A DNA stretch of 64,000 nucleotides from Heterodontus francisci (lineage: Eukaryota): positions 744,001 through 808,000 of the forward strand of contig NW_027141511.1 of NCBI RefSeq assembly GCF_036365525.1, given 5' to 3'. The translations under genes and the position numbers were made by a program. Of the stretch, positions 112-28,460 are shown piece after piece. The notes under the pieces were generated by a model. It saw only the letters and a program-made list of their open reading frames with translations. It did not search any database and was not told where the DNA came from. Within the stretch, counting starts at the first letter, position 1. Each line of letters starts with the position of its first letter.

Positions 112-3100
112 GTTTTTATTTATTCATTCATGGGATGTGGGCGTCACTATTGATGTAAGCATTTATTGCCCATCCCTAATTGTCCTTGTGAAGGTGGTGC
201 TGAGCTTCCTTCTTGAACCGCTGAAGTCCATGTGAGGTAGGTACACCCACAGTGCTGTTAGGAAGGGAGTTCCAGGATTTTGACCCAGCGACACCGAAGG
301 AATGGTGATCCAGTTCCAAGTCAGGATGGTGTGTGACTTGGACGGGAACTTGCAGGTGGTGGTGTTCCCATGCATCTGCTGCGCTTGTCCTTCGAGGTGG
401 TAGAGGTCGTGGGTTTGGAAGGTGCTGTTTAAGGAGGCTTGGTGCATTCCTGCAGTACATCTCGTAGATGGTACACACTGTTGCCACTGTGCGTCGGTGG
501 TGGAGGGAGTGAATGTTTGTGGATGGTGGGCCAATCAAGCGGGCTGCTTTGTCCTGGATGGTGTCGAGCTTCTTGAGTGTTGTTGGAGCTGCACCCATCC
601 AGGCAAGTGGATAGCATTCCATCACACTCCTGACTTGTGCCTTGCAGACGGTGAGCATGATTTGGGGAGTCAGGAGGTGAGTTACTCGCCGCAGGACTTC
701 TAGCCTCTGACCTGCTGTTGCAGCCACGGTGTTTATATGGCTACTCCAGTTCAGTTTCTAGTCAATGGTAGCCCCTAGGATGTTGATATTAGGGTATTGA
801 GCGATCGTCTTGCCATTGAACGTCAAGGGGAGATGGTTAGATTCTCTCTTGTTGTAGATGGTCATTGCCTGGCACTTGTGTGGCACAAATGTTACTTGCC
901 ACTTATCAGCCGAAGCCTGGATATTGTCCAGGTCTTGCTCCATTTATACAGGGACTGCTTCAGTATCTGAGGAGTCACGGATGGTGCTGAACATTGTGCA
1001 ATCATCAGCGAACATCCCCACTTCTGACCTTATGATTGAAGGAAGGTCATTGATGAAGCAGCTGAAGATGGTTGTGCTAAGGGCACTACCCTGAGGAACT
1101 CCTGCAGTGATGTCCTGGAGCTCAGATGATTGACCTCCAATAACCTTTGCACTAGGTATGAATCCAACCAACAGAGATTTTTCCCGCTGATTCCGATTGA
1201 CTCCGGCTTTGCTAGGGCTCCTTGATGCCATACTCGGTCAGCTGCTGCCTTGATGTCAAGGGCAGTCACTCTCACCTCACTTCTTGAGTTCAGCTCATTT
1301 TTTCCATGTTTGAACCAAGGGTGCAATGAGGTCAGGAGCTGAGTGGCCCTGACGGAACCCAAACGGAGCGTCACTGAGCAGTTATTGCTAAGCAAGTACT
1401 GCTTGATGGCACTGTTGATGACGCTTTCCATCACATTACTGATGATTGAGAGTTGACTGATGGGGCGGTAATTGGCCGGGTTGAACTTGTCCTGCTTTTT
1501 GTGTACAGGACATACCTGGGCAATTTTCGAACTTGCCGGTTAGATGCCACAAATGTTAGGTAAATGTTGCAGCTATATTGGAACAGCTTGGCTAGGGGTG
1601 CAGCAAGTTCTGGAGCACAGGTCTTCAGTACTATTGCCAGAATGTTGTCAGGACCCATAGCAATTGCACTATCCAGTGCCTTAAGTCGTTTCTTGATATC
1701 ATGCAAAGTGAATCAAATTGCCTGAAGTCTGGTATCTGTGATGTTGGGGACTTCAGGAGGGGGCCGAAATTGATCATCAACACGGCACTTCTGGCTGAAC
1801 ATTGTTGAAAGTACTTCTGCCTTATCTTTTGCATGAAGTGCTGGGCTTCCCCAACAGTGAGGATGGGGATATTTGTGGAGCCGCCTCCTCCAGTTAGTTA
1901 ATAAAAGCAAAATACTGCGGATGCTGGAAATCTGAAATAAAAACAAGAAATGCTGGAACCACTCAGCAGGTCTGGTAGCATCTGTGGAAAGAGAAGCAGA
2001 GTTAACATTTCGGGTCAGTGACCCTTCTTCCGAACTCCAGTTAGTTGTTTAACTGTCCACTACCATTGACGACTGGATGTGGCAGGACTGCAGAGTTTAG
2101 ATCTAATCTGTTGGTTATGGGATCGCTTAGCACCATAGCATGCTGCTTATTCAGTTTGGCATGCAAGTAGTCCTGTGTTGTAGCTTCAACAGGTTGACAC
2201 CTCATTTTGAGGTGTGCCTGGTGCTGCTCCTGGCAGCCCTCCTGCACTCTTCATTGAACCAGGGTTGGTCTCTTGGCTTGATGGTAATGGAATAGTGGGG
2301 GATATGCCGGGCCATGAGGTTACAGATTGTGGTAGAGTGCAATTCTGCTGCTGCTGATGGCCCACAACGCCTCATGGATACCCAGGTTTGCATTGCTGGA
2401 TCTGTTCGAAATCTATCCCATTTAGTACGGTGATAGTGCCACACAACTCGATGGACGGTATCCTCAACGTGAAGGTGGGACTTCGATCCACAAGGACTGT
2501 GTGGTGGTCAATCCTAGCAATACTGTCATGGACAGAAGCATCTGTGGCTAGCAGTTTGGTGAGGACGAGATCAGGTTTGTTTTTCCCTCGTGTTGATTCC
2601 CTCACCACCTGCCGCAGACCCAGTCCTCCAGCTATGTCCTTTAGCACTCGGCCTGCTTGGTCAGTCGTGGTGCTACCGAGCTACTCTTGGTGATGGACAT
2701 TGAATGCCCCCACCCAGAGTACATTTTGTACTCTTGCCACCCTCAGTGCTTACTCCAAGTGGTGTTCAGCATGGCGGAGTACTGAGTCATCAGCTGTCGG
2801 AGTGCGGTAGGTGGTAATCAGCGGGAGGTTACCTTGTCCATGTTTCACCTGATGCCATGAAACTTCATGGGGTCCAGAGTCGATGTTGAAGACTCCCAGG
2901 GCAACTCCCTACCTACTGTAGACCATTGTCCCGCCACCTCTTCTGGGTCTGTCCTTCCGGTGGAACAGGACAAACCCAGGGATAGTGATTGCAGTGTCTG
3001 GGACATTGTCTGTAAGGTGTAATTCTGTGAGTATGACTATGTCAGGCTGTTGCTTGGCTAGTCTGTGGGACAGCACTCCCAACTTTGGCACAAGCCCCCA

Positions 3101-3550
3101 AATTGGTAAGGAGGACTTGACAGGGTCGACAGTGCTGGGTTTGCCATTGTCATTTCCGGTGCCTAGGTCGATGCCGGTTGGTCCGTCCTGTTTCATTCCT
3201 TTTTATTGACTTCATAGTGGTTAGTACAACTGAGTGTCTTGCTAGGCCATTTCAGAGGGTATGTAAGTGTTAACCACATTGCTGTGGGTCTGGAGTCACA
3301 TGTCGGCAAACCCAGGTCAGGACAGCAGATTTCCTTCCCTAAAGGACATTAGTGAACCAGATCGGTTTTCCCAACAATTGGCAATAGTTTCATGGCCATC
3401 ATTAGACCAGCTTTTTTAAAATTCCAGATTTATTAATTAAGTTCAAATTACACCTTCTGCTGTGCTGGGATTCGAACCCATGTCTCCAGATCGATACCCT
3501 GGGTCTCTGGGTTACCAGTCCAGTGATAATACCGCTAAGCCACCTACTCC
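112..3550 (-). mobile_element. Near full-length, degenerate single-ORF LINE (CR1/L2-related group; APE endonuclease + RT) with a tRNA-derived 5' head; copy A
   Basis: Frameshifted minus-strand ORFs run from endonuclease (QQPDIVILTE 2909-3196; DLVLT..DHHTV 2372-2647) through RT (ALDIKAAADRVWH; GVPQGSALS; MFADDC) to the C-terminus (176-727). The 3' tail is near 112-190. At the 5' end, minus-strand A box TGGCTTAGCGG (3532-3542) and B box GGTTCGAATCC (3468-3478). Confidence 0.9.
1900..2034 (-). mobile_element. Penelope-like terminal-repeat fragment inserted in LINE copy A
   Basis: Exact 12-bp TSD CTCCAGTTAGTT at 1888-1899 and 2035-2046. Same sequence family as 9066-9671, 25906-26153 and 35941-36078. 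Carries a degenerate hammerhead core on the minus strand. Confidence 0.75.
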
Positions 3551-4690
3551 TCTGTTGACCTCAATGCAGCTTTAACCCATGGGAAAAAAGAGCTGAAATC
3601 AAGAGGTGAGGTGAGAGTGATTGCTCTTGAATTCAAGACAGCATTTGACCGAGTGTGGCATCCAGGAACCCTGGCCAAATTGAAGTCAATGAGTATCAGT
3701 GGTGGAGGGGATGGGGGCGGGGGGGGGGGGGAGGCATGGGGGTGTACTCGCAACTGGTTGGAGCCATACTTACAAAGATCGTTGTGGTTGTTGGAGTCAA
3801 TCATCTCATTTCCCGGACGTCACTGCAGGAGTCCCTCAGGGTATTGTCCAAGCCCCACCTTTCTCAGCTGCTTCCTCAATGACCTTCCCACCATCACATT
3901 GTCAGAAGTCAGGAGGTTCGCTGATTGCACAATGTTCAGCACCATTCGCAACTCCTCAGATACTGAAGCAATCGGTGTCCATATGCAGCAAGGCTTGGAT
4001 AGTAGTCCGGCTTGGGCTGATGAGTGGCCAGTAAACTTCGAGCCATGCAAGTGCCAGTCAATGACCAACACCAGCAAGAGAGAATCCGATCATCTCCTTT
4101 GACATTAATGGGCATTACTATTGCTGAATATTCTTTCCGAACATCCTCGGGTTACCATTGAGCAGAAACAGAAATGGACCAGGCATGTACGTATTCTGGC
4201 TACAAGAGCTAATCAGAGGCTGGGAATTCTGCGGCGAGTAACTCATCTTCTGACTCCCTAAATCCTGTCCACCATCTACAAGGCACATGGTTGGACTTTG
4301 ATGGAATACTTTCCAGTTGCTTGGACAAATGCAGGTCCAATAACACCAGAAGTTGAACACCATCCAGGACAAAGCAGCTGGTTTGACTGAAATCCTATCT
4401 ACCATCAACATTCATTCCCTTTGCCACCGATGCACAAAGGCAGCAGTGGAAATAACACCACCTGCAAGTTCCACTCGAAGACACAAACCACTCTGACTTA
4501 GAACTATGTCACTGTTCCTTCGCTGTCGCTGGGTCAAAATCCTGGAACTCCCTTCCTAGCAGCACTGTAGCTTTACCTACACCACATGGACAGGAGCTGT
4601 TCAAGAAGGTGGCTCACCACCAATGGCAATTAGGGATGGGCAGTAAATATTTGCCTAGCCAGCGACACCCACATCCCGTGAAAGAATAAG
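3551..4690 (+). mobile_element. 5'-truncated 3' part of the same LINE family, back-to-back with copy A
   Basis: RT motif fragments (ALEFKTAFDRVWH; GVPQG; FADC) and the family 3' tail GGCAATTAGGGATGGGCAGTAAAT...CCCACATCCCGTGAAAGAATAA near 4625-4690. Confidence 0.85.
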
Positions 4691-5039
4691 AAAACTGTGC
4701 AACGCTGCACCACGTTGTCTGCGATTAGCAAGCTCAGCACAGGACAGATGGAATGTAATCCCTTCCTGCTCTGTGCCGAGCTCCCTGCTATACTGGGTGA
4801 GGTCAAACATCACGTCACAGACCATGGGCATATTTTGGCCCTTTTCTGTGGAGGTTGGAGCTTGTTATGTGCCTCGTTATCAGTCCAGCTAAGAAGAACT
4901 AGCACGACAGGGCAGGGATGGATACTGGGCATTTTCTTCGAAGTGTGTGTGGCCCAGTCGCAAATGCGACTGGAATGAAGCTGAGGTCGTTGCTGTTCCG
5001 TGTGAAGCTAAAAACCACAACGCAGATGATAGGAGTGCT

Positions 5040-7690
5040 TTCTGAGGGAATGAGATGGTTCAACAGGGTCAAGTGTCAGTAGGGAAATATTTAGGAGAAA
5101 GTGATCATAGTATCATCAGGTTCAGGTTCGCTATGGAAAAGGGCAGGGAGCAACCCAGCGTAAAAATGAGCCGGAGGACCAGTTTTAATGCGGTGAGAAT
5201 GCACCTGGCCCAGATAAATTGGAATAAAAGATTGGTAGCAAAATCGTAATGGAAGAATGAGCTGTCTATAAAAAGGAGATGGTTCCCATCCATGAGGTGG
5301 AATGGGAGGACCAACAAAGCCAGAGCTCTCTGGATGATGAAAGGGATAGAGGTTCAGATAAGGCATTTGAAGTGTAGGTCTGGTGCGTATGATAGATGCC
5401 AGGGGGATAATACAAGTGAGATGTAGGCTGAATATAGGAAGTTCAGTGAGGAGTTGAGAAAAGTCATAAGAGAAACAAAGAGAGAGTATGAGAAGTGTCT
5501 GGAAGCTGACATAAAAGGAAATCAAAGGTTTTCTATAGGCATATAAGTCGTAATGTGGTAATAAAAAGAGGAGTAGGAATGATTAGGCACCAAAAAGGGA
5601 TTTGTGCATGGAGGTAGAGGGCATGCCTGAGGTACTGAACCAGTACCTTGTATTCGTCTTTACCAAGGTAGACGATGCTGCCAAAGTCATAGTGAAGTAG
5701 AAGATTATTGAGACACTGGATGGGCTAAAATTTGATGAAAAGGACGTATCAGAAAGATTGACTACACTTGAAGTAGATATGTCATCAAGCCCAGATGAGA
5801 TGCATTCGAAGATACTTACAGAAGTCAGGGTGGAAATTATGGAGGCACTGACCAACAATCCACTTTGGATACAGGAGCACTGTCAGTGGAATGGAGAATT
5901 GTAAATTCCACACCCTAGTTCAGAACAGGCTGCAATGGTAAGCTCAGCAACTACAGGTCAGCCAGTTTAACATCAGTGATGGGATATCTTTTAGAAACGA
6001 TGATCTGGGTCAAGATTAACAGCAACTTGGACAAATTTGGATTAATTAAGGAAACCAACATGGATTCCGTATGGGCACATCACATTTAACTGACTTGATT
6101 GAGTTTCTCGATTAGGTAACAGAGAGTATCCAGGAGGATTATTGTGGTTAATGTAGTTTACGTGAACTTCCAAAAAAGGCTTTGATAAATGTCCACTTAA
6201 CAGGGTTGTCAGCAAAGTTAAAGCTCATGGAATAAAAGGTAGCATGGTTATGAAGCTGGCTGAGTGACAGGAAACAGAGAGTAATGGTGAACATTGCTCC
6301 TTGTACAGAAGGAAGGTATACAGTGGGATTCCCCAGGGATCAGTATTAGGGCCACTGCTCTTTGTATTCACTAAAAATGACCGAGACTCGGTGTGCAGGG
6401 TACACTTTCAAAACTTACAGACAACACAAAACTTGAAAGTGTTGTGAACTGTGTGGAGGATAGTCACAGACTTCAACAGGACATAGTTGAAGGAATGGGC
6501 AGATGGAATGTACTGCAGAGAAATGTGAATGGATACATTTTTGTGAAAGAATGTTGAAAGGCAATATAAAATAAAGGATATAATTCTAAAGGATGCGGAG
6601 AAGCATAGGGTCCTGGGGGAAAATGCACACATCCTTGACGGTGGCAGGGCAGAATGAGAATGTGACTAAGAAGGCATGCGGTATCCTGTGCAGTATAAAT
6701 AGAGGCATGGTGTACAAAAGCAAGGAAATTACGGTAAAGATTTGCCAAGCACTGATTTGGCCTCACCTTGAATATTGTGTACAATTTTGGGCACCACACT
6801 TCAGGATGGTTGAGAAGTTATTGGAGTGAATGCAGAAAAGTTTCACCAGAATGGTTCCAGGGATGAGTTACATGGATACATTGGAGAAGCTGGGGCTGTT
6901 CTCCTTAGAAAATATAAGGTTGAGTGTAGATTTGATGGAGGTGTTCAAAATCATGAGAGGTCTGGACAGAATAGATAGGGAGAAACTGCTTCAGGTGACA
7001 GAAGGGTCAAGAACGATAGGCACCAATTTATGCAATGGCAAAAGAACCAAAGGTGACATGGTTTTGTTTTCTAAAGGTGGAAATGGAATATAGTGTAAAG
7101 AAATATGAAAATATCCTCTTCAATGGGAAGAATCAAAACGCAGGATATTATTTAAATGTTAAAATTAACAAACATTGATATTCAGAGGGATTCGGTGTTC
7201 TTCTATACAAATCCCAGGAAAATAACATGCGGGAACAGCAAACAATTAGGAAAGCAAATGGTTTTTTGGCATTTATTGTAACATATTTGTAGGATAAGAG
7301 CCTGAAAGTCTTGGTACAATTATACATGGCTTTGATGAGATCACATCTGGGGTACTGTCTCCAGTTTTGGCCTCCGTAGTTAAGGATGTACTTGCCTCAG
7401 CTATGGTGGAATAAAGATTCACTGGATTGCTGCCTGGGATAAGACAGCTGCACTAACAGGAGGGATTGACTGGAACATCCCATTTGTTCTGTGCTTGAGA
7501 ATGGATGCTTAGTTGTTGAGTATATTCAAGACCGAGATCGATATGTTTTGGGGGCACGAACAGAATAAAGGAATACTGTGATCAGGCATGACAATGGAGT
7601 TGAGAAAAATGATCTGTCATGGACTTATTGAATGGTGGAGCATATTCGATTGTTCACAAGACCTAATCCTGCTTCTTTTGTTCTTAAGTT
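5040..7690 (+). mobile_element. Degenerate CR1 LINE ORF2 fragments (at least two pieces)
   Basis: LGESDHSIIRF, GIPQGSVLGP-type DNA at about 6325-6360, PHLEYCVQFWAPH (6593-6829), LGLFSLE; many stops and frameshifts. Confidence 0.85.
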
Positions 7691-7727
7691 CAAAATTAAA
7701 TTGTTATTTTAGCAAGTCCTTCTTTCC

Positions 7728-8635
7728 TCAGCAAAACATAAATGCTGAGCGAATCTGATTGATTGGATATGTCACCATTTTCTTTAATTCTTCTCTGAAT
7801 TTTGCCTGGGTCACTGCATAAATAAAGGTGTTCGTGCAGCAACTCAAAAGTAAGAGCATATATCCGGTCTCTTGAAAGATATAAACAGGATCTTCATAAC
7901 CTGTGTGTGAATACCTGTTAGTAATTCGGTAATACATATAATGTGTCGTGTGCGTCAGCCACAACAGTATAAAATTGGTGGATATACTGAAGAGTAAAAT
8001 TACAGATTTCTTCCTGTTCTCCATCTCAGGATCAGCATTATTTGCAGAGCTGGTGTTGCCTCGCAGTGCCCTCCGGGCTCTGTTGGCCACTAAAATATAC
8101 CTTACTGTCAAAATATTGAGAAGCAAAATAATGGCAAATGGTAGAAAAGGAACCGTTATGGAGCTGAAATAAGAAAATGATTGCCATAGGGGTGAGGTAT
8201 AAAAGACAGACCTGATCCGACAATACCAGGGCAATCCATTATTTATGTACAGAGGCTCATATACAAAGTATCAGGGGATGTTATCTAAACAGCTCAGAAC
8301 AAGCACCATGCCTATAATTGCAGCTGCAGTTTCCTTAGTGCAATATTTTATTTTGAGTTTCTGGAAACAAATGGCTATAAAGCGGTCAAAGGTGAATGCG
8401 ACAGTGAACCAGACGGAAATATCTCTGGTTATGTAAACTAGGACGGTCTTTGCCCGACATACTGGTGTAAGCAACAGATAATTTCCAGCAAAGGAAATGG
8501 CAATGATCCGATTTAGTATGACACTTGTGATAGCTACCAGCAGATCCGCCGCTGCCATAGCCACCAGGTAGTAGATGGTACAGTTGGAGAGACCGCACTT
8601 TCCCCGGACCAGGATCACAATTGCCACGAGATTAA
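7728..8635 (-). pseudogene. GPR139/GPR142-like class A GPCR paralogue 1, coding exon 2 (end of TM1 to C-terminus), with one premature TGA
   Basis: Acceptor AG at 8636-8637. The exon is 908 nt, the same length as in paralogue 2. Motifs MAAADLLV, FTFDRFIAIC, SCCTNTFIY. ORFs 8271-8705 and 7728-8234 share a frame and are separated only by TGA at 8271-8273, where paralogue 2 has TGG (NIPW). Confidence 0.88.
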
Positions 8636-9065
8636 CTGAATGGAACAGTAGAAAAGAAAATGTGTTATTGGCGTACATTAATGCAAAGAACCAGAGTTTG
8701 TCCACATCAGAAATCCAGCTAGACCTTCAATTTCCACTCATGTAAAATGGTGATAGGGAGTTACCAGTTTTTTTAAAATATATATTTCTCTCTACATTAT
8801 AGACAAGAGGAATAAACATCAGAAGCGGTGTAAAACCATTGACGTCTCATTATCCCTCATTGTTCACTATCACACAATTTCTACATCTGTCCTGTGCTAC
8901 TTCATCCCGCAAGGAAGCACTTTTTTGAGTATATCATATGGAATACATATTTCAAATTATGACTTTTAGAACTCAAATACAAATTTAGAGTGTCTGGGTT
9001 TAAGTAGCATGATATTTCGAAGTCATAACAGGAAGCCATTCGAACCAGGCAATGACATATGGGTT

Positions 9066-9671
9066 ACAAGAAATGCTGGAAATACTCAGCAGGTCTGGAA
9101 GCATCTGAGGACGGAGAAACAGAGTTAACGTTTCAGGTCAGTGACCCTTCATCATAACTGGCAAAGGTTAGAAATGTAATAAGGTTTTAGCAAATAAAGG
9201 GGGTGGGGTGGGCCAAAAGATAACAAAAGGCAAGGTGTTGATAGGACAGCGTCACAGAGAGTAACTGACCAGTAGGTCATGGAGCAAAGGCAAACGGTAT
9301 GTTAATGGTGTGTTGAAAGACGAACCTTAGTGCAGTTTTCTGTCCATTAACACCCTCTCTGCACTAATGCTTTGTCTTTCAACACAGCAATAACCTACCG
9401 TTTGTCTTTGCTGCATGACCTTCTGGTCAGTTATTCTCTGTGACAGTGTCTTATCAAAACCCTGCCTTCTGTTATCTCTTACCCCACCTCCGCTTTACTT
9501 GCTGAAACCATATTACATTTCTAACATTTGCCAGTTCGGATGAAAGGTCACTGACATGAAATATTAACTTTGCTTCTCCCCCCACAGATGCTGCCAGACC
9601 TGCTGCGTATTTCCAGCATTTCTTATTTTGATTTCAGATATCCGGAATCGGCAGTATTTTGCTTTTATTTT
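9066..9671. mobile_element. Penelope-like inverted terminal-repeat pair (about 600-bp hairpin) in the GPCR paralogue 1 intron
   Basis: Arm 9066-9335 is the reverse complement of most of arm 9359-9671, with a loop of about 23 nt. Absent at the paralogous intron site (about 21245-21265). Hammerhead-like cores in both arms. Confidence 0.8.
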
Positions 9672-9887
9672 AATGACAATTGCATATTGCAAATGGACTA
9701 GATTAATTTTAAAACAAAATAAAAACAAGTAATGAATTTTAAATTGAATGGCACAAATTTAGTTAGAAAAAATAATTTTTAATTAAGGAATAATTTCAAC
9801 AACAATTAAGAATCAAGCATTTAATTCAATCAAGTATAAAACTCAACTCAGTAGAAAGCGAGCTTCAGATTAACACTTAAAATAATA

Positions 9888-11166
9888 AGAACAAACAAAG
9901 AACAAAGAACAGTGCAGCACAGGAAAAGGCCATTCGGCCCTCCAAGCCTGCGCTGATCTTGATGCCTGCCGAAACGAACACCTTCTGCACTTCCGGGGCC
10001 CATATCCGTCTATTCCCTTCCTATTCATATATTTGTTAAGATGTCTCTTAAACGTCGCTATCGTATCTGCTTCCACCACCATCCCTGGCAGCAAGTTCCA
10101 GGCACACACCACCCTCTGTGCAAAAAACTTGCCTCGCACATCCCCTCTAAACTTTGCCCCTCTCAGCTTAAACCTATGTCCCCTAGTAACTGACTCTTCC
10201 TCCCTGGGAAAAAGCTCCTGACTATCCACTCTGTGCATGCCGCTCATAACTTTGTAAACCTCTATCATGTCGCCCCTCCACCTCTGTCGTTCCAGTGAAA
10301 ACATCCGAGTTTTCCCAACCTCTCCTTATAGCTAATGCCCTCCAGACCAGGCAACATCCTTGTAAACCTCCTCTGTACCCTCTCCACGTCCTTCTGGTAG
10401 TGTGGCGACCAGAATTGCACGCAATATTCTAAGTGTGGCTTAACTAAGGTTCTGTGCAGCTGCAACATGACTTGCCAATTTTTATACTCTATGCCCCGAC
10501 CGATGTAGGCAAGCATGCCGTATGCCTTCTTGACTACCTTATCCAACTGCGTTGCCACTTTCAGTGGCCTGTGGACCTGTACGCCCAGATCTCTCTGTCT
10601 GTCAATGCTCCTATTGGTTCTGCCATTTGCTGTATACCTCCCACCTGCATTAGACCTTCCAAAATGCATTACCTCACATTTGTCTGGATTAAACTCCATC
10701 TGCCATTTCTCCGCCCATGTCTCCAACCGATCTATATCCTGCTGTATCCTCTGACAATCCTCATCATTAACCGCAACTCCACCAACCTTTGTGTCATCCT
10801 CAAACTTACTAATCAGACCAGCTACATTTGCCTCCAAATCATTTATCCATACTACAAACAGCAAAGGTCCCAGCACTGATCCCTGCGGAACACCACCAGT
10901 CACATCCCTCCATTCATAAAAACACACATCCACTGTTACCCTCTGTCTTCTGTGACTCAGCCAGTTCTGTATCCATCTTGCCAGCTCACCTCTGATCCCA
11001 TGTGACTTCACCTTTTGCACCAGTCTGCCATGTGGGACCTTGTCAAAAGCTTTACTAAAGTCCATATAGACAACATTCACCGCCCTTCCCTCATCAATCA
11101 TCTTCTTCACTTCCTCAAATTAGTAAGACACGACCTCCCCTTCACAAAAACATGCTGTCTCTCACT
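9888..11166 (-). mobile_element. 5'-truncated, relatively young CR1 (HER1-like) LINE
   Basis: 281-aa ORF with YMDFSKAFDKVPH, GVPQGSVLGPLLF, KFEDDTK, PHLEYCVQFWSP. The 3' tail reads GAACAAA repeats on the plus strand. Absent at the paralogous site near 21460. Confidence 0.93.
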
Positions 11167-11359
11167 AATAAATATTGAAACTGGAACTGTCCAGTAAAAG
11201 CATGAAATGTCATGCAGAACAGACAATTGGCTTCCCCACTAAAGCATGGGACCCTTCGTGTGGCAGAATGCAAAAAACGATTGAGTTCGTATTGTTCATT
11301 CAGAAAGGTTATAGAAACATCAGATAAGGCATAAATACATTGTTGGAAGGAGGAAAGTT

Positions 11360-11620
11360 GACACCCCGTCCACAAGCCTCTAATTTTGAATTCTAATCTC
11401 CGTGTTCAGAGCTCTTCATGTCTACTCCCATCTCGAACTCAGCAATCTACTCCAGTCCAACACGACTTTGAGGAACTTACCTTCGACCAATTCTGACCCC
11501 TTGTCCATCAGCACATCATTAGTAGCAGTGCATTTCAGGCACTTAGGCCCTGGGCCATGGAACCCTCTACCGATACATTTCCGTTTTTCCCTGAAACATA
11601 TTGATGGTTCTCAAAAGATA
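11360..11620 (+). mobile_element. Old L2 LINE 3' fragment, duplicated with 22070-22600
   Basis: Aligns by eye to 22470-22600 (CCCCGTCCAC...CTCAGCAATCTACT...GAGGAA). Confidence 0.55.
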
Positions 11621-11984
11621 TCATGTGTTTTGTTCCTCACCTATTTTTCCTTCTTTTCTTCATTGTCTACATTTCTCTGTATCTTTGAAGAAGGTGAATA
11701 CATTTTCCGAGTTAAAGTTGTATAATTGCATGTCGCTTTGTTGATTGTGTTAGATATTAATCTCTACCGACTTTGATCACTATTTTACTGGAAGAACAAA
11801 ACGTGTAATAGAACATTTGCTCATGGTTTCTCTAACATATCAGATAAAGGAACTTAAGAACAACGTATTTAATTTTGGTAATCTACTATGTTACAGCTCA
11901 ATGTTAAAATCCCTTGCTTAACAATAACTGCATATCTATTTAATTCAGGTGATATTCATTTCATTATTAAGTGAAATAATCAAG

Positions 11985-12220
11985 TTAACTGTGTGATGAA
12001 TTCTCTGGAATCCTCTGCCTCAGAGTGTAGTGGAGGCTAGTTCACTAAATGTATTTAAGGAGGAGATAGATAGATTTCTGAAATCGTGCAATGTTGAGGG
12101 TTTTGCGGAGCAGGCCCAAAAGAGGAGTTGAGCCCTGGGACAGATCAGCCATGATCTTATTGAATGGCGGGGCAGGCTTGAGGGGCTGAATGGTCTATTC
12201 CTGCTCCTATTTCTTATGAA
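11985..12220 (+). mobile_element. CR1 3'-end fragment
   Basis: TGGAATCCTCTGCCTCAGAGTGTAGTGGAGGC...GATCAGCCATGATCTTATTGAATGGCGG...CCTGCTCCTATTTCTTATG, a typical CR1 3' end. Absent at the paralogous site. Confidence 0.8.
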
Positions 12221-13346
12221 ATTGCACTTCACGAAAATGCCACTGAAAATATCAGTCAGATTATAAATCCAAATATTAGTTGTTTAAATATTTATGCTAT
12301 AAATTGAATTCACTGGGTACCTGCCTTAAATCAACACAGATGCCATTAGGGCTATGTTTCAATGTTTAACCATCACTTATCTTTTGAAAAAAATCACTTT
12401 CACCAATACAAAAAACCGAGTTTACTCAATGCGCTGATGCATACTCAAACTCTAATAACACAACGTTGCTCATTCTCATAATACAGCTATTATTACTATT
12501 TTTGGAGGATGTCATGCAACAGCTTTAAAACTTCACATGCGCTGCAAATCATTGCTTCATTACAAATGATGAGCAGAACTTATGTGTTGTATAATGCCCT
12601 CAAGATAGATTGAATTGTCAGTAAGCTTAATGCTCCTGAGCTGTATTGGTGTGATCGTGGACAAGTATAATGTCTTGTTTCATACTAAGCTACATGAACA
12701 GGGAAATCGAGGCTACTTCCTCGTCTCATCAGTCCGTTGATCTCAGAGGTTGTGATGTCGGTAATGCAACCAGACTCAGGAGTGCTGGTACAGGAAGTAA
12801 TACATCCAATGTTCTTCATTACGAGTAGAACGCTTGTAAGTGAATGTTTTAGTGAGGGACTGTCTAATCAGTGAAATCATCTCTGTCTTTAAAAGTCTGT
12901 TAAATCTCCCTATCATGTGAAATAAGAAGAAGAGGTCAGTCATACAAAGGCTAACAGAGCTTAGAGAAACTGAGCAGGAGAAGATAAGTGAAAACAATAA
13001 TTTCTTCACAAATTTCAATATTGCTCGATTTGGAATTTGGATATCGATCTACAACCAATGGAAGCTTCAGCGAAATGGAACACCTTTCAAGTCAAGTTTA
13101 TAATTTGATGAATGCTTCATTTTGGTCGCGGGATAATAGGTTATTTGAAGAAAATGCTTGACAAAATCCAGTCTGTGCCAGAGATGTGATTGCCATAACT
13201 TTATTATTATAAACATAGGTTAACTTAGTCCTTGAGTGGTTGCATCAGAATATGTGACTATTTAGAAAGCACATCCACCAGATGCACAGCAAGATTATTG
13301 AAACAGTTAAAGATAGGTTTGCACGGCTGGCAAGGTCACAGCTTAC

Positions 13347-13416
13347 CTGGCACGCCAACAGCAGCAAGAATCGGATAGTAAATTGTATATACTAGACCAG
13401 TTGCTGGCTCATGCAT
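13347..13416 (-). pseudogene. GPR139/GPR142-like paralogue 1, coding exon 1 (MHEPATGLVYTIYYPILAAVGVP)
   Basis: ATG at 13414-13416 with an in-frame TGA just upstream. Donor GTAAGC at 13346-13341. The exon is 70 nt, phase 1, matching exon 2 (G|TT AAT = V-N). Confidence 0.88.
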
Positions 13417-15342
13417 TTTCTTTCAGAAGTGACTATGTCTCAACTGTTTCAACACATGGTTTGTGGCAGTCAATATATAGATCATGGAATCCACCAGTGA
13501 GCCAATTAGGTAATGTTTTACTGATGTTAGTTCCATGCATTTGCACAAACTGATTGAGTTGTTTTTATTCCAATGTTTTTGACTGAACGTTGTGAAAGGT
13601 TATTACACGATGCTTCTGGGAAACACCCAAAGGACCAATTGCTCTTTTAGTTGCATTATTTCTAAAAATAGAATTGAAAGGTGATGCAAGCAATGTTTCA
13701 CAATAGTTCTGAAGGCCAGATTCGATCTCTGGAGCGTGTTGATTTAGTTGAGTTATCCATGGAGCGATAGCAGGACTGTTGAAATTGTTAGCCAGTCCAC
13801 AAGCTGGACAGATTGAAAGTAGGCCCAAGTAATTCTTCCAAATTAATATCCATTGATCGCTCCAGGGTTGTGTCATTGTGATAAATGTGCGAAGGTACTG
13901 AAGGTAAGCACATTGCTTCGGAATTGCATTACCCAAGGCTTAGCATGTGCTCTCCCATATTTGCTACGAATAAAGTACAGTTAAGAAACATAATTTTCCA
14001 TAATAGGCTCATTCCTAGACTAAAAACTTTAATGCTCCCAGTAAACATCAGAAAAGGGACATCGATTGCTGCTGGAGAAGTCCAGAAAAAGCTTTATTTT
14101 CTAAAATGCAATCTCTTTGAGGTGCACATGGAATATTAAAATGGTTATTTTTAAATGAGGGGCAAAATTGTTCAGACAAAGTCATCATCTACCGAGAATA
14201 CTTTACTGATTAAGGAATACGTTAAAACATTTTGGCCCTTCATTGCACCTTCGGAAGCTATTTGACCCACCACTTCTTTACTGCTCTCAACAAGTCTTAC
14301 ACTCATAACCTCGTCATTTTTCCTACGTTTTTTTTGGGTCCTGACATATGTATCCACTTCCTTTTGCTGCCCTCCTCGTGGGGCAGGGGTACAAAATGGC
14401 GCAAGTTATATTACAGTGGCAGAGAGCCCTCGCTTGAGGCCATTAAAACTAATGTGTTCCGTTCTGGGCACTGCAACTCAGGGAGGATATAATTAACTTT
14501 GAGGGTTTTACAGGGCAGACTTACTAGAATGATACCAGTCGAAAAGGAGGAGAACATGTTGTACAAATTAGGGTAGCAGTCCACTAAGTTTGGCAGTTTG
14601 AGTGCTGATGCAAATATGTTTTCTAGATCATTACAGGAGCTAATAATGTATATAGAGAAACAATTTCATCTAGTGTGGGATTCCAGAATATTGGAACCTT
14701 AACTTGAAGCTCAGATTAGGAAGGGATGATATCAGTGTGGACTTCTGTACACAAACGGTAGTGAAAAAGAAGAGATGATAGGTCTACTGTTGTTGATGTG
14801 TTACTAAGTTTGAGAGCAGATAACTGAGAGCAGACCTTGGATGGAACCTGGGAAGGCCGTTATTGCTTTCTGTAGCAAAGTACCACACAAGGTGAGATCA
14901 GCTACGTCAGCACAGGCCATGGTTGCAATATTTGCCCTCTTACTCTGTTAGTGTCTGAGTGCCTTGCCAGATATATTGAGCTGACATCACAAGGTGGGGA
15001 TGAAGCCTGTGCTCTTTGCTCTCTCTATGCACCTCATTAACACAGTGGATGAAATCAGCTATCACAGGCCACCCGTGCCGTTTCTGTTCAGTGTGGATCA
15101 ATCCCACTCTGCTTTGGAACAGCTATCTCAACATAGTCCAGTGTTAGAAACTAGGGCTTCCCAGCGCTCAATGGGTGGAATCAAGGGATATTGTGATAGT
15201 GCATGAAAGCGGAGTTGTCATTGAAAGTCCACCATGATCTTATTGAATGGTGGACTGTTCATATGGCCTAGTCCTTTCCCTTTTCTTCTGTTCTGAAGTG
15301 CAAAATTAAATTGTAGTTATAGCACATCCTGAGTTGCTCTGC

Positions 15343-16250
15343 TTATTGAAATAAAATTGCTGAGCAAATCTGATTCACTGGATATGTCACCATTTTCTTT
15401 AACTCTTCTCTGAATTTAGCCTGGGTCACTGCATAAATAAATGTGTTCATGCAGCAACTCAAAAGTAGAAGCATATATCCGGTCTCTTGAAAGATATAAA
15501 CAGGATCATCATAGCCTGTGTAAGAATATGTTTTGGTACTCCGATAATACACGTAATGGATTGTGAACGTCAGCCATAACAGTATAAAATTGGCGGATAT
15601 GCTGAAAAGTAAAGTTATGGATTTCTTTCTGTTCTGCATCTCAGGATCAGGATTATTTGCAGAGCTGGTGTTGCCTCTCAGTGCCCTGCGGACTCTGCTG
15701 GCCACTAATATATATCTTACCGTCAGAGCATTGAGGAACAAAATAATAAAAAATGGCAGAAAAGGTGTTGTGATGGAGTCGAAATAAGAAAACGCTATCC
15801 AGAGGGGTGAGGTATAAAAAATGGACCTAAATCTGCAATACCAGGGCAATCCGTTACTTATGTACAGAGGTTCATATGCAAAGTACCATGGAATGTTTTG
15901 TAAACAGCTCAGAACAAGCACCATGCCTATGATTGCAGCTGCCATTTCCTTGGTGCAATATTTACTTTTCAACTTCTGGCAACAAATGGCTATAAACCGG
16001 TCAAATGTGAATGTGACGGTAAACCAGACAGAAAGATCATTGGATAAATATGCCAGAGCGGTTTTTGTCTGACATACCGGAGTAAGCAACAGATAATTTC
16101 CGGGAAAGTAAATGTCAATGATCCGATTGAGTATAACGGCAGTGATAACAACCAGCAGATCCGCCGCTGCCATGGACACCAGGTAGTAGGTGATGCATTT
16201 GGAGAGACCGCATTTACCCCGGGCCAGGATCACAATTGCAACGAGATTAA
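15343..16250 (-). CDS. GPR139/GPR142-like class A GPCR paralogue 2, coding exon 2 (intact)
   Basis: Open 908-nt exon after acceptor CTGCAG (AG at 16251-16252). TM2 MAAADLLV, TM3 FTFDRFIAIC, TM5 PFLPFFIILFLNALTVR, TM7 SCCMNTFIY; stop at 15343-15345. With exon 1 it gives 325 aa. Confidence 0.93.
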
Positions 16251-16636
16251 CTGCAGGTAAGTATGGAAAACAAAATATGTTATTGGCATGCATTAATGCA
16301 AAGAACCAGAGTGTGTCCACATTAGAAATTGGGATAGAGCTTGACTTTGCATGATAATGCAAAATGGTGATAGAGATTGCCAGCTGGTTTTACAGCAATC
16401 TGTATTAAAGATAATGAGAACAAAAATCAGAGGTGATGTAAAACCACGACTGCCTCATTATCCCCCGTTATACAATATCGCACAATTTCAAACTCTGCCC
16501 CTTCCTACTACATCCCACAAGATAACAAAGTTTTGAGCATTAATATGTATTCTATAGTTTCTACATGACAATTTATAACAATTGGAAAATAAATAAAAAT
16601 GGTCTGTGTTAATGTAACATGCTATGTGCAAGCGTT

Positions 16637-19600
16637 AGAGGCGGTGGTGGTGGAGCGGTATTGTCACTGGGCTCGCAATCCAGAAACTCAGGATATTGCT
16701 CTCTGGACGTGGGCTCGAAATGAATTCAATAAATAAATCTGGAATTAAAACCTAGCCTAATGATGGCGATGAAACCATTGTCGATTGTTATAAATACTCA
16801 TCTAATTCACTCATGTACTTCAGAGAAGGAAATCTGTCATGCTTGTCTGGCCAACGTGTGACGCCAGAGCCACAATAATGTGGTTGAGACTGAAATGCCC
16901 CAGCAATCCATCTTTGGCCTCCTTATCGCGAGAGACAATGGGAAAGCGCCTGGAGGTGGTCAGTGGTGTGTGGAGCTGCGCCTGGAGTGGCTCTAAAGGC
17001 CAATTCTAGAGTAACAGGCTCTTCCACAGGTGCTGCAGAAAAATTTGCTTGTCGGGGCTGTTACACAGTTGGCTCTTCCCTTGCGCCTCTGTCTTTTTTC
17101 CTGCCAACTGCTAAGTCTCTTCGATTCGCCACACTTTAGCCCCGCCTTTATGGCTGTCCGCCAGCTCTGGTGAACGCTGGCAACTGACTCCCATGACTTG
17201 TGATCAATGTCGCAGGATTTCATGTCGCATTTGCAGACGTCTTCAAAGCAGAGACATGGACGGCCGATGGGTCTGATACCACTGGCGAGCTCGCTGTACA
17301 ATGTGTCTTTGGGGATCCTGCCATCTTCCATGCGGCTCACATGGCCAAGCCATCTCAAGCGCCGCTGACTCAGTAGTGTGTATAAATTGGGGATGCTGGC
17401 CGCCTCGAGGACGTCTGTGTTGGAGATACGGTCCTGCCTGCTGATGCCAAGTATTCTCCGGAGGCAGCGAAGATGGAATGAATTGAGACATCGCTCTTGG
17501 CTGATGTACATTGTCCAGGCCTCGCTGCCATAGAGCAAGGTACTGAGGGCACAGGCGTGATACACACGGACTTTTGTGTTCTGTTTCAGTGCGCCATTTT
17601 CCCACACTCTCTTGGCCAGTGTGGACATAGCAGTGGAAGCCTTTCCCATGCGCTTGTTGATTTCTGCATCTAGAGACAGGTTACTGGTGATAGTTGAGCC
17701 TAGGTAGGTGAACTCTTAAACCACTTCCAGAGCGTGGTCGCCAATATTGATGGATGGAGCATTTCTGACGTCCTGCCCCATGATGTTCATTTTCTTGAGG
17801 CTGATGGTTAGGCCAAATTCATTGCAGGCAGCTGCAAACCTGTCGATGAGACTCTGCAGGCACTCTTCAGTGTGAGATGTTAAAGCAGCATAGTCAGCAA
17901 AGAGGAGTTCCCTGATGAGGACTTTCCATACTTTGGACTTCGCTCTTGATGGGCAAGGTTGAACAACCTGCCCCCTGATCTTGTGTGGATTAAAATTCCT
18001 TCTTCTGAGGCCTTGAACGCATGTGAGAGCAGCAGGGAGAAGAAAATCCCAAAAAGTGTGGGTGCGAGAACACAGCCCTGTTTCACCCCACTCAGGATGG
18101 GAAAGGGGTCTGATGAGGAGCCACCATGTTCAATTGTGCCTTTCTTATTGTCATGGAATGAGGTGATGATACTTAGTAGCTTTGGTGGACATCCAATCTT
18201 TTCCAGTAATCTGAAGCGACCACGTCTGCTGACGAGGTCAAAGGCTTTGGTGAGATCAATGAAAGCAATGTAGAGGGGCATTTGTTGTTCGTGGCATTTG
18301 TCCTGTATCTGACGAAGGGAGAACAGCAACTGAAATGCCCTAGCAAACCACTCAGGTGTATTTAACCACAGAAAAGCCAGTAAGGAATGAAACTGATAGA
18401 CCTTCAGACTGGAAGCTAAAGCGATAAACAACAGGCCTTCGACACTGCAAAGTCCTCCTTACAAACCTCTGGGGCTTGTGCTTTGCCAGCGCATCACGCA
18501 ACAGCCTGATATTGTCATAATCATGGAATCATACCTGAAAGAACGTGTCCCCGGGTATGGCCTGTCCCAATGGAAGGACAGACGCAGCACAGGTGGTGGC
18601 AAAGAGGTAGACAGTGGGGAGGAGTTGCCCTGGAGTCCTCAACATCGACTCCAGACCCAATGAAGTCTCATGGCATCAGGTCAAACATAGGCAAGGAAAC
18701 CTCCAGCTGATTTCCACCTACTGCCCTCCCTTGGCTGATGAATAAGTATTCCTCCATGCTGAAAAGCACTTAGCAGAAGCACTGTGGATGGCAAGGCCAC
18801 AGAATGTACTTTAGGTGGGGGACTTAAATGCTCATCACCAACAGTGGCGAAGTAGCACCACTACTCACAGATCTGGCTGAGTGCTAAAGGACATAGCTGC
18901 TGGACTGTGTCTGCGGAGGATGGTGAGGGAACCAACAAAAGGTAAAAGCATACTTGACCTTATCCTCACCAATCTGCCTGCCGCAGATGCATCTGTCCCT
19001 AACAGTATTGGGAGGAGTGACCACTGCACAGTGCTAGTGGAGACAAATTCCTATCTTCAAATTAAAGATGCACCGCTTTGTGTTCGTTGGTGCAATCGCA
19101 CTGCTAATTCGGATAAATTTTCAACAGATCTAGCAATGCAAACTGGGCATCTATAAGGTGTTGTCGGCCATGAACAGCAGCAGAATTGTATTGAAACGCA
19201 ATCTGCAAACTCATGGCTTGGCATATGTCCCACTCTACCATTGCCATCATGCTGGAGTACTAACCCTGTTTCAATGAAGAGTGCAGGAGGGCATGCCAGG
19301 AGCGGCACCAGGCATACCTGAAAATGAGGTGCCAACCTGATGAAGCCACAACCCAGGACTACTTGCATGCTAAACAGCGTAAGCAGCATGCGGTAAACAT
19401 AGCTAAACGATCCCATAACCAACGGATCACATCTAAGCTCTGCAGTCCTGCCACATCCAGTTCTAAATGGTGGTGGACAATTAAATAATTCACTGGAGAA
19501 GGTGGCTCCACAAATATCCCGATCCTCAATGATGGGGGAACACAGCACATAAGTGTGGAAGATACGGGTGAAGCATTTGCAGCCAGCTTCAGACAGAAGT

Positions 19601-21222
19601 GCCAAGTGGATGATCCATCGCAGTCTTCTCCTGAAGTTCCCAGGATCATCGGCGACAGTCTTCAGCAAATTGACTCACTCCACATGATATCAAAAAAAGA
19701 CTGAAGGCATTGGATACTGCAAAGGCTCTGGGCCTTGTCATCATTCCGGCAACAATACTGAAGACTTGTGTTCCAGAACATTCTGCGCCCCGAGACAAGC
19801 TGTCCTCGTACAGCTACAACACTGACACCTACCCGGCAATTTGGATAATTGCACAGCTATGTCCTGTACACAATATGCAGAACAAGTGCAATCCTGCCAA
19901 TTGCTATCCCATCAGTCTACTATCAATCATCAGTAAAGTGATGGAAGGAGTCACCGACAGTTCTATCAAGCAGCAACTGCTGAGGAATAACCTACACAAT
20001 GATGCTCAGTTTAGGTTCCGCCAAGGCCACTCAGCTTCTTACCTCTTTGTAGCCTTGGTTCAAACATGGATAAAAGGGCTGAAATCAAGAAGTCAGGTAA
20101 AAGTGGCTGCCCTTTACATCATGGCAGTATTTGACTGCGTATGGTATCAAAATTGGAGTCAATGGGAATCAGGGGGAAACTCTCCACTGCTTGGCGTCGT
20201 ACTGGCACAAAGGAAGCTGATTGTGGTTGTTGGAGGTCAATCATCTCAGTTGCAGGAGATCACTGCAGGAGTTTCTCAGTGTTGTGTCCTCGACCCAGCC
20301 ATCTTTAGTTGATTCATCAATGACCTTCCAACAAACATAACGCTAGAAGTGGGGATGTTTTGCTAATGATTGCGCGATGTTCAGCACCATTCGTGACTCC
20401 TCAGATACTGGAGCAGTCCGTGTAGAAATGCAACAAGACCTCGACAATATTCAGGCTTTGGCTGATAAGTGGCAAGCAACGTCAACACCACACTAGTGCC
20501 AGGCTATCATAATCTCCAACAGGAGAGAATCTTATCATGCCCACACGACATTCAAAGGCATTAGAATCGCGGAATCACCTACTATCAACACCCTGGAGAT
20601 TACCAGAAACTGAACTGGAGTAGCCAAATAAATACTGTGGCTACAAGAACATGTCAGAGGCAGGGAATCCTGCGGCGAGTAACTCGCCTCCTAACTCCCC
20701 AAAGGCATAAAGTCAGGAGTGTGATGGAATACTCCCCACTTGCCTGGATGAGAGCAGCTACAGAAACACTCAAGAAACACGACACAATCCAGACAAAGCA
20801 ACCCACTTTGTTGGTACCCCAGAAACAAACATTCACTGCCTCCACGCACAGTAGCAGCAGTGTGTACCATCTACAAGATGTACTGCAGCAACACAACAAG
20901 GCTTCTTCGACAGCACCTTCTATCCCAGCTACCTCTGCCACCTAGAAGGACAGGGGCACCAGATGCATGGAACACCACCCTCAACAAATTCCCCTCCAAG
21001 CCACACTGCATCCTGACTTGGAATTACATTGCTGTTCCTTCACTGACGCTGGGTCAAAATCCTGGAACTCCCTTCCAAAATGCACTGTTGGTGTACCTAC
21101 CCCACATGAACTGCCGCGATTCAAGAAGGTGGCTCACCATCACCTTCTCAAGGGTAATTAGGAATGAACAATAAATGCTGGCCTATTCAGCGACGCCCAC
21201 ATCTCATGAACGAATAAAACAA
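16637..21222 (+). mobile_element. Full-length tRNA-headed single-ORF LINE, copy B, in the GPCR paralogue 2 intron, interrupted by an RTE
   Basis: tRNA-like head at 16637-16720, then the 5' UTR, endonuclease (QQPDIVIIMESYL 18478; DLILTN..SDHCTV 18881), RT (19710-20400) and 3' tail (21140-21222). The whole block is absent from the paralogous intron at about 9025-9030. Confidence 0.9.
16911..18328 (-). mobile_element. 5'-truncated RTE-clade LINE nested in the 5' UTR of LINE copy B
   Basis: RTE-type RT (FIDLTKAFDLVSR, GVKQGCVLAPTLF) and C-terminus (LLYGSEAW, RLRWLGHV, CSTCGRAC). 22-bp TSD with 2 mismatches: ACTGAAATGCCCCAGCAATCCA (16889-16910) and ACTGAAATGCCCTAGCAAACCA (18329-18350). Confidence 0.93.
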
Positions 21223-22069
21223 AAGAAGAAGCCAATATAACCAGGAAATGAGACATTCGAATTTCAAATGAACTGGAATTATATTTTAAACAAAGATGAA
21301 AACAAGGAATGAATTCTAACTTGAATGCCATAACTTTAGCTAGAATATATAATTGTCAACTAAGTAACAATAGCAAAAACAATCAACAATACATCACTTA
21401 ATTGAATAAAATACAAAAGACATCAATGTAGAAAGCGAGTTTCAGATTAACAGTACAAATAATGCTTCTTCAAACTGGAACTGCAAAATAAAAGCAGGAA
21501 TTGTCATAAAGAGCAGACACCTAAATGCCACAAGAAAGCATGCAATCTGTAACGTGGCAGAATTAATAAACCGATTGAGTTCGGATTGTTGCTTCGCAAA
21601 AGCTATTGAAACATCAGATAAGGCAAAAAAAAAATTCTTGGAATGAGGAAATGGCCACGAACTGACCAACACTTCTCTCCAGAATCGAAGGATTTTTAGA
21701 AGCAGCAAAGACTCGCTCTTGTGGTTTTGTGGCCAGAAGACCTGGTTCGTCCAACTTATAAAACAGGGAATAGCAAGGGTAATAATAGAGGAGCAAGCAT
21801 TAGTGACAGCATTAGCGAAGCATAGCTGATGTGAAATAACAATATGATGCTTTGAGAAAATGCCTGGGAATCCAAATGATTGAACTTCCTTAAAGAATAA
21901 CAAATTCATGACTGGCATAGTAAGGATGAGCCTGTGACTTTTCTGGAGAATAGGTAAGTCATTAAATCAATGAAATATATTATTGGTCATGTAATATTGG
22001 TTGACTGTATTGGCAGACGTTTTGCCAGATATCAAGTCAACTTTGCGCTAAAGCAACATTTGGAAGATT

Positions 22070-22600
22070 GAAGCCGTTGATTTCATCCTGGCACAAACTC
22101 TGTTGCTCAGAAATTGATTTTATCCGTTTCACTTGCCACTGCCACAGCGTGATACAGACTTTTTATGACCTCTGTTGGCACTTTGACAATATGTTGAGCT
22201 TCTCAGATGATCTCCTTTTACATTATCAAGATCCATTACATCCCATTTCCGTTATATTACCTATTTCTGCCCCACCTGAATTTATTTGCTACTGAAATCC
22301 TCCATCGTGCTTTTGTTAATTCCACTCCAGACTATTTCAATGGTATACTGGATGATTTCCCATCTTATACCCTCCATAAGGAAACGTTGATTTAAAATAC
22401 TGCTACCGATGTCCTAATTCGAATCAAGCCCATTCACCCGAGACACCTGTATTCGCTGGCCTACGCTGACTCCCCGTCCACCAACTTCTATTTTAGAACC
22501 CTAATCCTCGTGACAGGAGCTCTCCTTGGCTTCTCCCCTCTCCAACTCAGCAATCTACTTCAGTCCGACAAGTCGTTGAGGAATTTACCTTCTACCAATT
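22070..22600 (+). mobile_element. Old L2 LINE ORF2 3' fragment
   Basis: Degenerate translation ATEILHRAFVNSTPDYFNGILDDFP resembles the L2 motif ETLIHAFVTSRLDYCN, followed by a PITPVL/LHWLPV-like stretch. Confidence 0.65.
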
Positions 22601-23876: not shown

Positions 23877-23946
23877 CTGGGACACCAACAGCGGCAAGAG
23901 TTGGATAGAAAATTGCATACACTAGACCAGTTGCTGGCTCATGCAT
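23877..23946 (-). CDS. GPR139/GPR142-like paralogue 2, coding exon 1 (MHEPATGLVYAIFYPTLAAVGVP)
   Basis: ATG at 23944-23946, donor GTAAGT at 23876-23871, 70 nt, phase 1. Near-identical to 13347-13416. Confidence 0.92.
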
Positions 23947-28030: not shown

Positions 28031-28134
28031 TATCTTTCAACGTCTATTTAAACATTGTGGGGAGATGGAGTTGAGCGAGAAGATCAGCCATGATCTTATT
28101 GAACGGCGGCGCAGGCTTGAAGTGACAATTTATA

Positions 28135-28460
28135 ATCGTTCTTGCGACGAGCACGTCACTGGTGAGGCCCGGTTTTATTGCACATGCCGAATTGTCCTTG
28201 AGAACATTGTGGTGAGCCACCTTCTTAAACTGCTGCATTCCATATGGGGTAGGCATTGCCAGAGTGCTGTGGGGAAGGGAGTTCCAGGATTTTGACCCAG
28301 CGACAGTGAAGTCATGGTGCTCTGGTTCCAGTCAGGATGGTGTGTGACTTTAAAGTGAACTTGCATGTGGTGATGTTCCCATGTGCCTGCTGCCCGTGTC
28401 CTTCTAGGAAGTAGAGATCGTGGGTTTTGAAGGTGCTGTATAGGGAGCCTTGGTGAGTTG
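28135..28460 (-). mobile_element. 3' fragment of the tRNA-headed LINE family
   Basis: Matches 150-450 (GGGAGTTCCAGGATTTTGACCCAGCGAC...; LPRRTRAAGTWEHHH). Confidence 0.8.

Follow-up and report, generated by a model that had tools for sequence, protein, structure and literature searches.

Copies of a tRNA-headed LINE in the window

The DNA analysed here, referred to as the window, is a stretch of 64,000 nucleotides of the shark Heterodontus francisci (assembly GCF_036365525.1, contig NW_027141511.1, positions 744,001–808,000 of the forward strand). It contains four copies (A–D) of a long interspersed element (LINE) that begins with a tRNA-derived head and encodes an endonuclease and a reverse transcriptase (RT) in a single open reading frame (ORF). 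The four copies lie where the original prediction, made from the sequence letters, had placed them, and the head is common to all. Their features are given below in window coordinates; nt denotes positions in the element and UTR an untranslated region.

112–3552, minus strand: copy A, full-length and decayed, ~90% identical to young copies
3455–3552, minus strand: tRNA-derived head of copy A, tRNA-Thr-like, with a 20-base insertion in the variable region
3532–3542, minus strand: A box of copy A
3468–3478, minus strand: B box of copy A
3230–3454, minus strand: body/5' UTR of copy A, also part of the short forms and unmatched in the published Deu, Meta and UCON3 alignments
3242–3250, minus strand: in-frame ATG-GCC-TAG of copy A, immediately ahead of the long frame; retained in all five age groups
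3182–3196, minus strand: ATG (MKQDG) of the original prediction in copy A, out of frame in the family and missing from the oldest group
176–3241, minus strand: single APE-endonuclease and RT frame of copy A, 975 codons in the family, broken in this copy
113–175, minus strand: 3' UTR and A-rich tail of copy A, common to short forms
1900–2034, strand not assigned: unrelated 135-bp repeat inserted in copy A, containing 3/4 of the TTTT runs of this copy
16637–21222, plus strand: copy B, older, full-length
16907–18328, minus strand: RTE LINE fragment (1.4 kb) lying within the 5' UTR of copy B, between head and ORF
16889–16906 and 18329–18346: 18-bp target duplication around the nested RTE of copy B
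9022–9026: empty paralogous site, where the two flanks of copy B join
29535–33335, minus strand: copy C, of the oldest age group
30256–30827: CR1 fragment inserted in copy C
34337–35422, plus strand: copy D, head and part of the endonuclease, with an internal deletion; ends at nt 1320, no RT

Both promoter boxes predicted for copy A were found, reading 3542–3532 and 3478–3468 on the minus strand. The claim that the head leads directly into an endonuclease-RT frame needs qualification: a nested RTE fragment lies between the two in copy B, and copy D has no RT. Copy B had been described as one insertion relative to an empty paralogous site, and its flanks indeed meet near 9022–9026. All four copies are dead, each containing 9–18 in-frame stop codons as well as frameshifts when projected on a young natural copy.

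A constant 5' end and head-to-ORF junction

The genome behind all of the searches comprises 6.0 Gb in 2,306 contigs. A 35-base pattern taken from the head-to-ORF junction (nt ~295–329), which reaches beyond the point where the short form of the element leaves off, had 4,647 exact matches, and a one-letter variant of it had 458, whereas the reversed control patterns had none genome-wide, so that the recurrence of the junction greatly exceeds chance. Thirty loci were picked on this junction, five of which were the window itself or its paralogs; four paralogous segments of the window are present elsewhere in the genome and were excluded as independent insertions. Among the other 25 loci, 18 reach the start of the head, two have a head split by a later insertion and five are cut short.

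For a sample independent of the head, we used 200 residues of the central ORF as a query, scored 150 matches and retrieved 20, most of which were chosen for long open frames. Of these ORF-picked copies, 13 begin at nt 1–2 and seven are 5'-truncated (at nt 62, 98, 307, 345, 486, 760 and 1137). The sequence adjoining the 5' boundary is different in every one of the 20, no two being alike, and neither an alternative 5' end nor an ORF1, nor any longer copy bearing one, was present among them, in agreement with the predicted lack of ORF1. The unit measures 3.29 kb and has one endonuclease-RT frame, very close to the single-ORF unit of about 3.3 kb that had been proposed. An A-rich 3' tail, 5' truncations and dispersed copies are in keeping with an APE-type non-LTR retrotransposon (LINE); target-site duplications were not consistent across the 23 copies inspected for them.

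Constancy of the junction had been set beforehand as a test, and junctions do not vary between copies. Together with copy B, which is inserted head to tail at an empty site, the fixed junction bears out the proposal that the head travels with the LINE. Insertion of independent short interspersed elements (SINEs) beside 5'-truncated LINEs might be suspected from the existence of free short forms and from the nested insertions that are common in the window. It is, however, refuted, with a negligible probability in our estimation, by the presence of one junction at >5,100 places, by heads that stand in front of the ORF without a SINE tail and by the single insertion of copy B. We regard it as almost certain that these copies represent a real and abundant LINE lineage, once autonomous, with a single ORF and a tRNA-derived head as its fixed 5' end.

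In four public sequencing runs from four different organisms, contigs across the head-to-ORF junction were found in two runs and the joint of the short form in three, and contig depth increases toward the 3' end of the element. Because junction contigs occur in runs of different organisms, the family is not confined to Heterodontus francisci.

The tRNA-derived head and the body

Neither ARAGORN nor Rfam called a tRNA on the head, and its tRNA origin is assigned from the boxes and from its similarity to a tRNA-Thr gene of this genome. With this gene, tRNA-Thr(TGT), the young head can be aligned over the full length, with a 20-base insertion (score, 50.2; shuffled mean, 23.6; shuffled maximum, 39.7), whereas the old head gave a marginal result (38.0 versus a shuffled maximum of 37.8). 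The only tRNA genes available for this comparison in 30 genomic loci were Thr-TGT and Lys-TTT, and the Thr isotype is proposed tentatively. The element starts 10 bases ahead of the A box, and both boxes fit their patterns in 38 of the 71 copies that cover the head. Between the majority sequences of the oldest and youngest groups, non-CpG changes are found in 1 of 21 box columns and in 8 of 50 spacer columns. The consensus fold of the head is not a cloverleaf, and no ribozyme or conserved structure was detected before the ORF, there being neither an Rfam match nor covariation support.

In the body (nt ~95–322), no Deu domain was recognized by eye against the published alignment (PMC7245038), nor in a short motif scan run without a positive control. 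By-eye comparison with the alignments in the same source likewise revealed no Meta or UCON3 domain. Identity of the element with SacSINE1, a Deu-SINE, was considered and rejected on the strength of these comparisons.

Coding capacity, selection and phylogenetic placement

Across 15 near-complete copies, one frame runs without a majority stop codon over ~975 codons. In a natural open stretch of 785 residues, an APE endonuclease domain (PF03372/PF14529) occupies residues 47–249 and an RT domain (PF00078) residues 532–780, and the nearest structure in PDB is that of LINE-1 ORF2p. A tree of copies, restricted to those with >1,500 ORF columns, is ladder-like, and five head-bearing age groups comprising 46 copies were chosen from it by hand. 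Copies diverge from the majority sequence of their own group by ~2% in the young groups and by 7–16% in the old ones. An apparent young subfamily of identical copies (L133–L142, L146 and L148–L150) proved to be a single decayed copy that has been multiplied, together with its common flanks, within a larger repeat unit on many small contigs; all such loci except one were kept out of the tree.

The ratio of non-synonymous to synonymous substitution rates (dN/dS) between the five group majorities is 0.12–0.20, which indicates purifying selection. Between old and young majorities, it is 0.16 in the endonuclease and 0.09 in the remaining frame, and the majority columns of the old groups contain one stop codon, of CpG type. 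As dN/dS is far below 1 across groups that all bear the head, head-bearing templates must have long made their own protein. The lineage was thus likely autonomous in the past, and the predicted autonomy gains support from this result. A contrary view would take the element as a long non-autonomous SINE with a dead ORF, mobilized by a parent LINE that has gone unseen and whose 5' end is conventional. It would explain why no intact copy was found and why no in-frame AUG precedes the endonuclease, except for one cut off from it by UAG. Nevertheless, the dN/dS values between head-bearing groups, the majority frame that is open over 975 codons and the lack of any alternative 5' end in the 20 ORF-picked copies largely refute this view, to which we give very little credence.

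The nearest proteins are 35–42% identical to that of the element and mostly consist of 930–1,000 residues encoded on 3–4-kb contigs. The RT phylogeny was built from 117 sequences and rooted on the RTE of this genome, excluding proteins of <590 residues and two others. In this tree, which lacks a labelled Zenon sequence, the element falls into a clade with a protein of the butterfly Colias (support, 0.88), away from the CR1 of this genome. The RT placement, which the original prediction had left to later work, groups it with single-ORF CR1-group elements, and its sequence probably represents a Zenon-like LINE of this group.

Short SINE-like forms

Three short forms of the element are present in the window.

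48304–48702, minus strand: short form with the type I junction (nt 1–322 joined to the tail)
54988–55344, minus strand: short form with the type II junction
36165–36528, plus strand: decayed short form

The short form is non-coding and ~400 bp in length, nt 1–322 being joined to nt 3218–3294 in all 22 loci picked on the short junction. When all fetched DNA is considered, 110 of 145 head matches run into the ORF, 33 run into the tail and two are unclassified. These findings favour repeated births of short forms from the long form, by internal deletion, on more than one occasion. The earlier description of the element as a SINE-LINE chimera presupposes a direction that the evidence does not fix: the short forms inspected appear to derive from the long form by deletion, a relation that concerns these forms and not the first origin of the head.

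Translation start

The frame had been thought to open at MKQDGPTGIDLG, but the ATG concerned (nt 353) lies in the +1 frame, where it opens a frame of 46 codons; it is in frame in copy A solely through a 2-base deletion. This position reads ATA in 13 of 103 copies, which belong to the oldest groups. The ATG of MKQDG was therefore rejected as the start of the family protein. Within the long frame, the earliest in-frame ATG is codon 285, past the endonuclease, and the sole in-frame ATG upstream is at nt 298, in the context ATG-GCC-TAG-CAA with G at −3 and +4. Its ATG is intact in 95 and its TAG in 81 of 101 copies; however, this motif is also part of the short form, and its conservation is no proof of use. 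The motif lies in a predicted hairpin with a 7-base loop resembling an anticodon loop (window 3242–3259, minus strand), for which there is no covariation support. In-clade relatives whose N-terminus is intact mostly possess a Met a short distance ahead of the endonuclease motif.

Because the endonuclease is under selection, we infer that translation must involve read-through, initiation at a non-AUG codon or a processed RNA; the near-cognate codon that has been kept throughout is UUG at codon 5. A subfamily in which UAG is opened to GAG (the 458 matches versus 4,647) was considered and rejected. Copies with GAG are dispersed over the tree, and the T concerned lies in a CCTA/CTAG hot spot seen on both strands, which makes the variant uninformative about read-through. 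Across 91 copies, mutations concentrate at T in CCTA/CTAG contexts over the whole element, chiefly as T>G, and the opposite strand shows the corresponding A>C; this suggests an effect of sequence context acting on DNA in this genome.

Avoidance of T runs

RNA polymerase III (Pol III) terminates at four or more T, and interrupted T runs act as weak terminators. In the majority columns of all five age groups, runs of four T (T4) are absent and runs of three (T3) number 6–8, as against 13–16 runs of four A. Of 74 near-complete copies, 46 have no T4, 20 have one and 8 have two. In seven young copies, base shuffling gave an expectation of 21–24 runs of three or more T and 4.3–5.0 of T4, whereas 6–9 and zero, respectively, were observed (p 0.000–0.023), and the dinucleotide TT is itself depleted to 0.68–0.73 of expectation. 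Under dinucleotide shuffling, T3 remains low in five of the seven (p 0.03 or less). Interrupted T runs are absent from all seven, as compared with 1–5 in each of 11 controls. Frames of other LINEs in the same genome contain 17–22 T3 and 2–4 T4 (three RTE frames of equal T content) or 32–33 T3 and 7–9 T4 (two CR1 frames).

Shuffling of synonymous codons revealed T3 depletion in 10 of 11 open stretches of the element; a twelfth (L047, with six T4 runs) had been removed, as about three quarters of its length falls outside the element, past its end. No T3 depletion was seen in 11 CR1 and 16 'RTE-locus' stretches, one RTE stretch being low in T4 (p 0.03). Among metagenome relatives with long frames, 66 of 67 carry T4 runs, and no pair of A and B boxes was found upstream in these 67 (of 80 loci), many of which lack 5' ends, which makes this negative a weak one.

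These patterns have to be weighed against transcription by RNA polymerase II (Pol II), directed by a promoter within the head or the body, with the head being a fixed 5' end and the T poverty serving another purpose, such as the removal of U-rich elements required by AAUAAA hexamers for premature cleavage. LINEs normally use Pol II (PMC5786205). A capped RNA would also be translated more easily, and hexamers (AATAAA/ATTAAA) are present at nt ~115–131, so that suppression of U-rich signals would help a Pol II transcript. Moreover, the expected depletion of T4 from the sense consensus, although complete in all five majorities, is by itself not significant against a dinucleotide null. On the other hand, the 5' end is situated, in the fashion of SINEs, 10 bases ahead of the A box, the same head alone drives abundant short forms, two LINE families of the Pol II type in the same genome tolerate T runs, and the missing AUG would not be accounted for. 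We consider this explanation unlikely, with about one chance in four.

Proposed mode of propagation

The avoidance of T runs, the conserved boxes and the SINE-like derivatives lead us to infer, indirectly, that the element is likely transcribed by Pol III. In such a cycle, TFIIIC and Pol III would start near nt 1 from the internal A/B-box promoter, and Pol III could read through the element owing to a sense strand without T4 terminators, stopping at the first T run in the flank. A ribosome might then enter the frame by read-through of AUG-GCC-UAG or at a near-cognate codon (UUG, codon 5). The endonuclease-RT protein would use target-primed reverse transcription, beginning at the shared 3' tail, to copy the RNA, and internal deletions retaining promoter and tail would yield ready-made SINE-like elements, more than once. 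On present sequence evidence, it is fairly probable that Pol III makes the template RNA. That it transcribes the whole 3.3-kb RNA from the head promoter, with the protein being translated from this same RNA, appears slightly favoured. The full scenario is tentative and in our judgement just short of an even chance: a long-lived autonomous coding element with a Pol III promoter, with terminators purged from 3 kb, a protein made from uncapped RNA by UAG read-through or non-AUG initiation, and repeated birth of SINEs by deletion.

Several points weigh against transcription and translation of this kind. The absence of T4 is not significant under dinucleotide shuffling (p 0.07–0.21) or synonymous-codon shuffling (p 0.08–0.38); once TT depletion is allowed for, the signal is therefore one of general T-run avoidance. 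Since the copies share ancestry, it also counts as one observation rather than many, and a distant, unrelated metagenome relative whose 5' end is missing (L119) likewise contains no T4, versus 5.5 expected. The conservation of the boxes over the spacer is not significant (p 0.19), and neither the anticodon A nor the T-loop A of the copies bears a footprint of tRNA modification. An uncapped RNA is expected to be translated poorly. No whole intact frame, which the original prediction had proposed to look for, was found among the 150 best matches or the 20 copies fetched from them. Finally, the contigs from public runs cover all bins of the element but show neither strand, start, cap nor polymerase, and the RNA status of these runs is guessed.

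The cap problem would be removed by a division of labour, in which Pol III makes the template RNA and the protein is supplied in trans by certain copies, whose capped Pol II transcripts arise by read-through or are spliced. The contigs spanning the whole element in runs guessed to be RNA are compatible with such transcripts, and the short forms show that mobilization in trans works. However, the steady purifying selection along a ladder-like master lineage fits better with a protein that copies its own RNA, and no recurrent spliced form was observed among the aligned copies; we judge this arrangement improbable.

LINEs are taken as Pol II elements and SINEs as non-coding Pol III elements, and a LINE that retains its tRNA head over successive subfamilies under purifying selection breaks this split. 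If Pol III transcription of the coding element were true, nature would offer here an example of a long protein translated from the product of Pol III, a polymerase that normally makes no protein-coding RNA, and the element would provide a one-step route to new SINEs by internal deletion. The head, the missing AUG and the avoidance of T runs are all local features; therefore, each can be tested directly with short natural fragments.

Relation to known elements

Zenon, a CR1-group LINE of Lepidoptera, has a single endonuclease-RT ORF in 3.1–3.7 kb and an internally deleted derivative, Persaeus (PMC6740152). The pair resembles the shark element in its single ORF, comparable length, poly-A tail and short derivatives of 5' and 3' ends that have arisen several times. 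Persaeus differs in that, according to that source, it has neither tRNA homology nor a Pol III promoter (PMC6740152). The in-clade relatives also differ from the shark element in having an AUG shortly before the endonuclease and in containing T runs. CR1-Zenon-like LINEs are known from the whale shark (10.1101/443036).

Bov-tA, CoeSINE4 and SINE2_Gav are tRNA-headed SINEs built on bipartite RTE/Vingi LINEs (PMC5786205) and, like the short form, consist of a tRNA head, a LINE 5' part and a LINE 3' part. In contrast, their heads were added to an already deleted, non-coding derivative, the LINE keeping a Pol II-type end, whereas in the shark the head sits on the coding element itself. The same source names RTE, Ingi, Vingi and R2 as the only origins of such ORF-less derivatives, and mentions no more than a possible Ceph-SINE piece in the 5' UTR of Ingi-3_AC (PMC5786205). 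In cartilaginous fish, SacSINE1 and the CmiSINEs are tRNA-derived SINEs whose 3' tail is common with a LINE, L2-2_CM (PMC5499810). However, SacSINE1 has a Deu domain, the CmiSINEs have a CORE domain and an Ala head, and homology to the LINE is reported for the tail only (PMC5499810).

A precedent for a LINE protein made from uncapped RNA is provided by R2. R2 and other LINEs need neither a cap nor an AUG for translation once a ribozyme has cleaved the RNA, R2 being co-transcribed by RNA polymerase I. This co-transcription sets R2 apart, and no ribozyme was detected in the shark element, whereas R2 and some other LINEs carry ribozymes (PMC5786205).

A literature search yielded no account of a tRNA-headed LINE in sharks; Repbase and Dfam were outside this search, and the sequence may well be catalogued there. 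Thus, the caveat that the family might already have been described stands for these databases, and no description was found in the literature.

Other features of the window

Two further fragments of the LINE are present.

3582–4693, plus strand: 5'-truncated copy, head to head with copy A
28130–28463, minus strand: 3' fragment

The RTE family, a fragment of which is nested in copy B, is young in this genome (96–97% identity among matches), and one RTE copy (L191) contains an open stretch of 1,017 codons. The window also contains a tandem duplication (7563–15180 versus 15178–25624), each unit of which includes a minus-strand frame resembling a G-protein-coupled receptor (7728–8726 and 15343–16389). 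Exon-sized plus-strand frames at 39137–43601 resemble immunoglobulin domains of a Siglec/MAG-like gene; both of these family assignments come from the look of the translations alone. Decayed minus-strand frames at 53537–54521 resemble the integrase region of a long terminal repeat retroelement.

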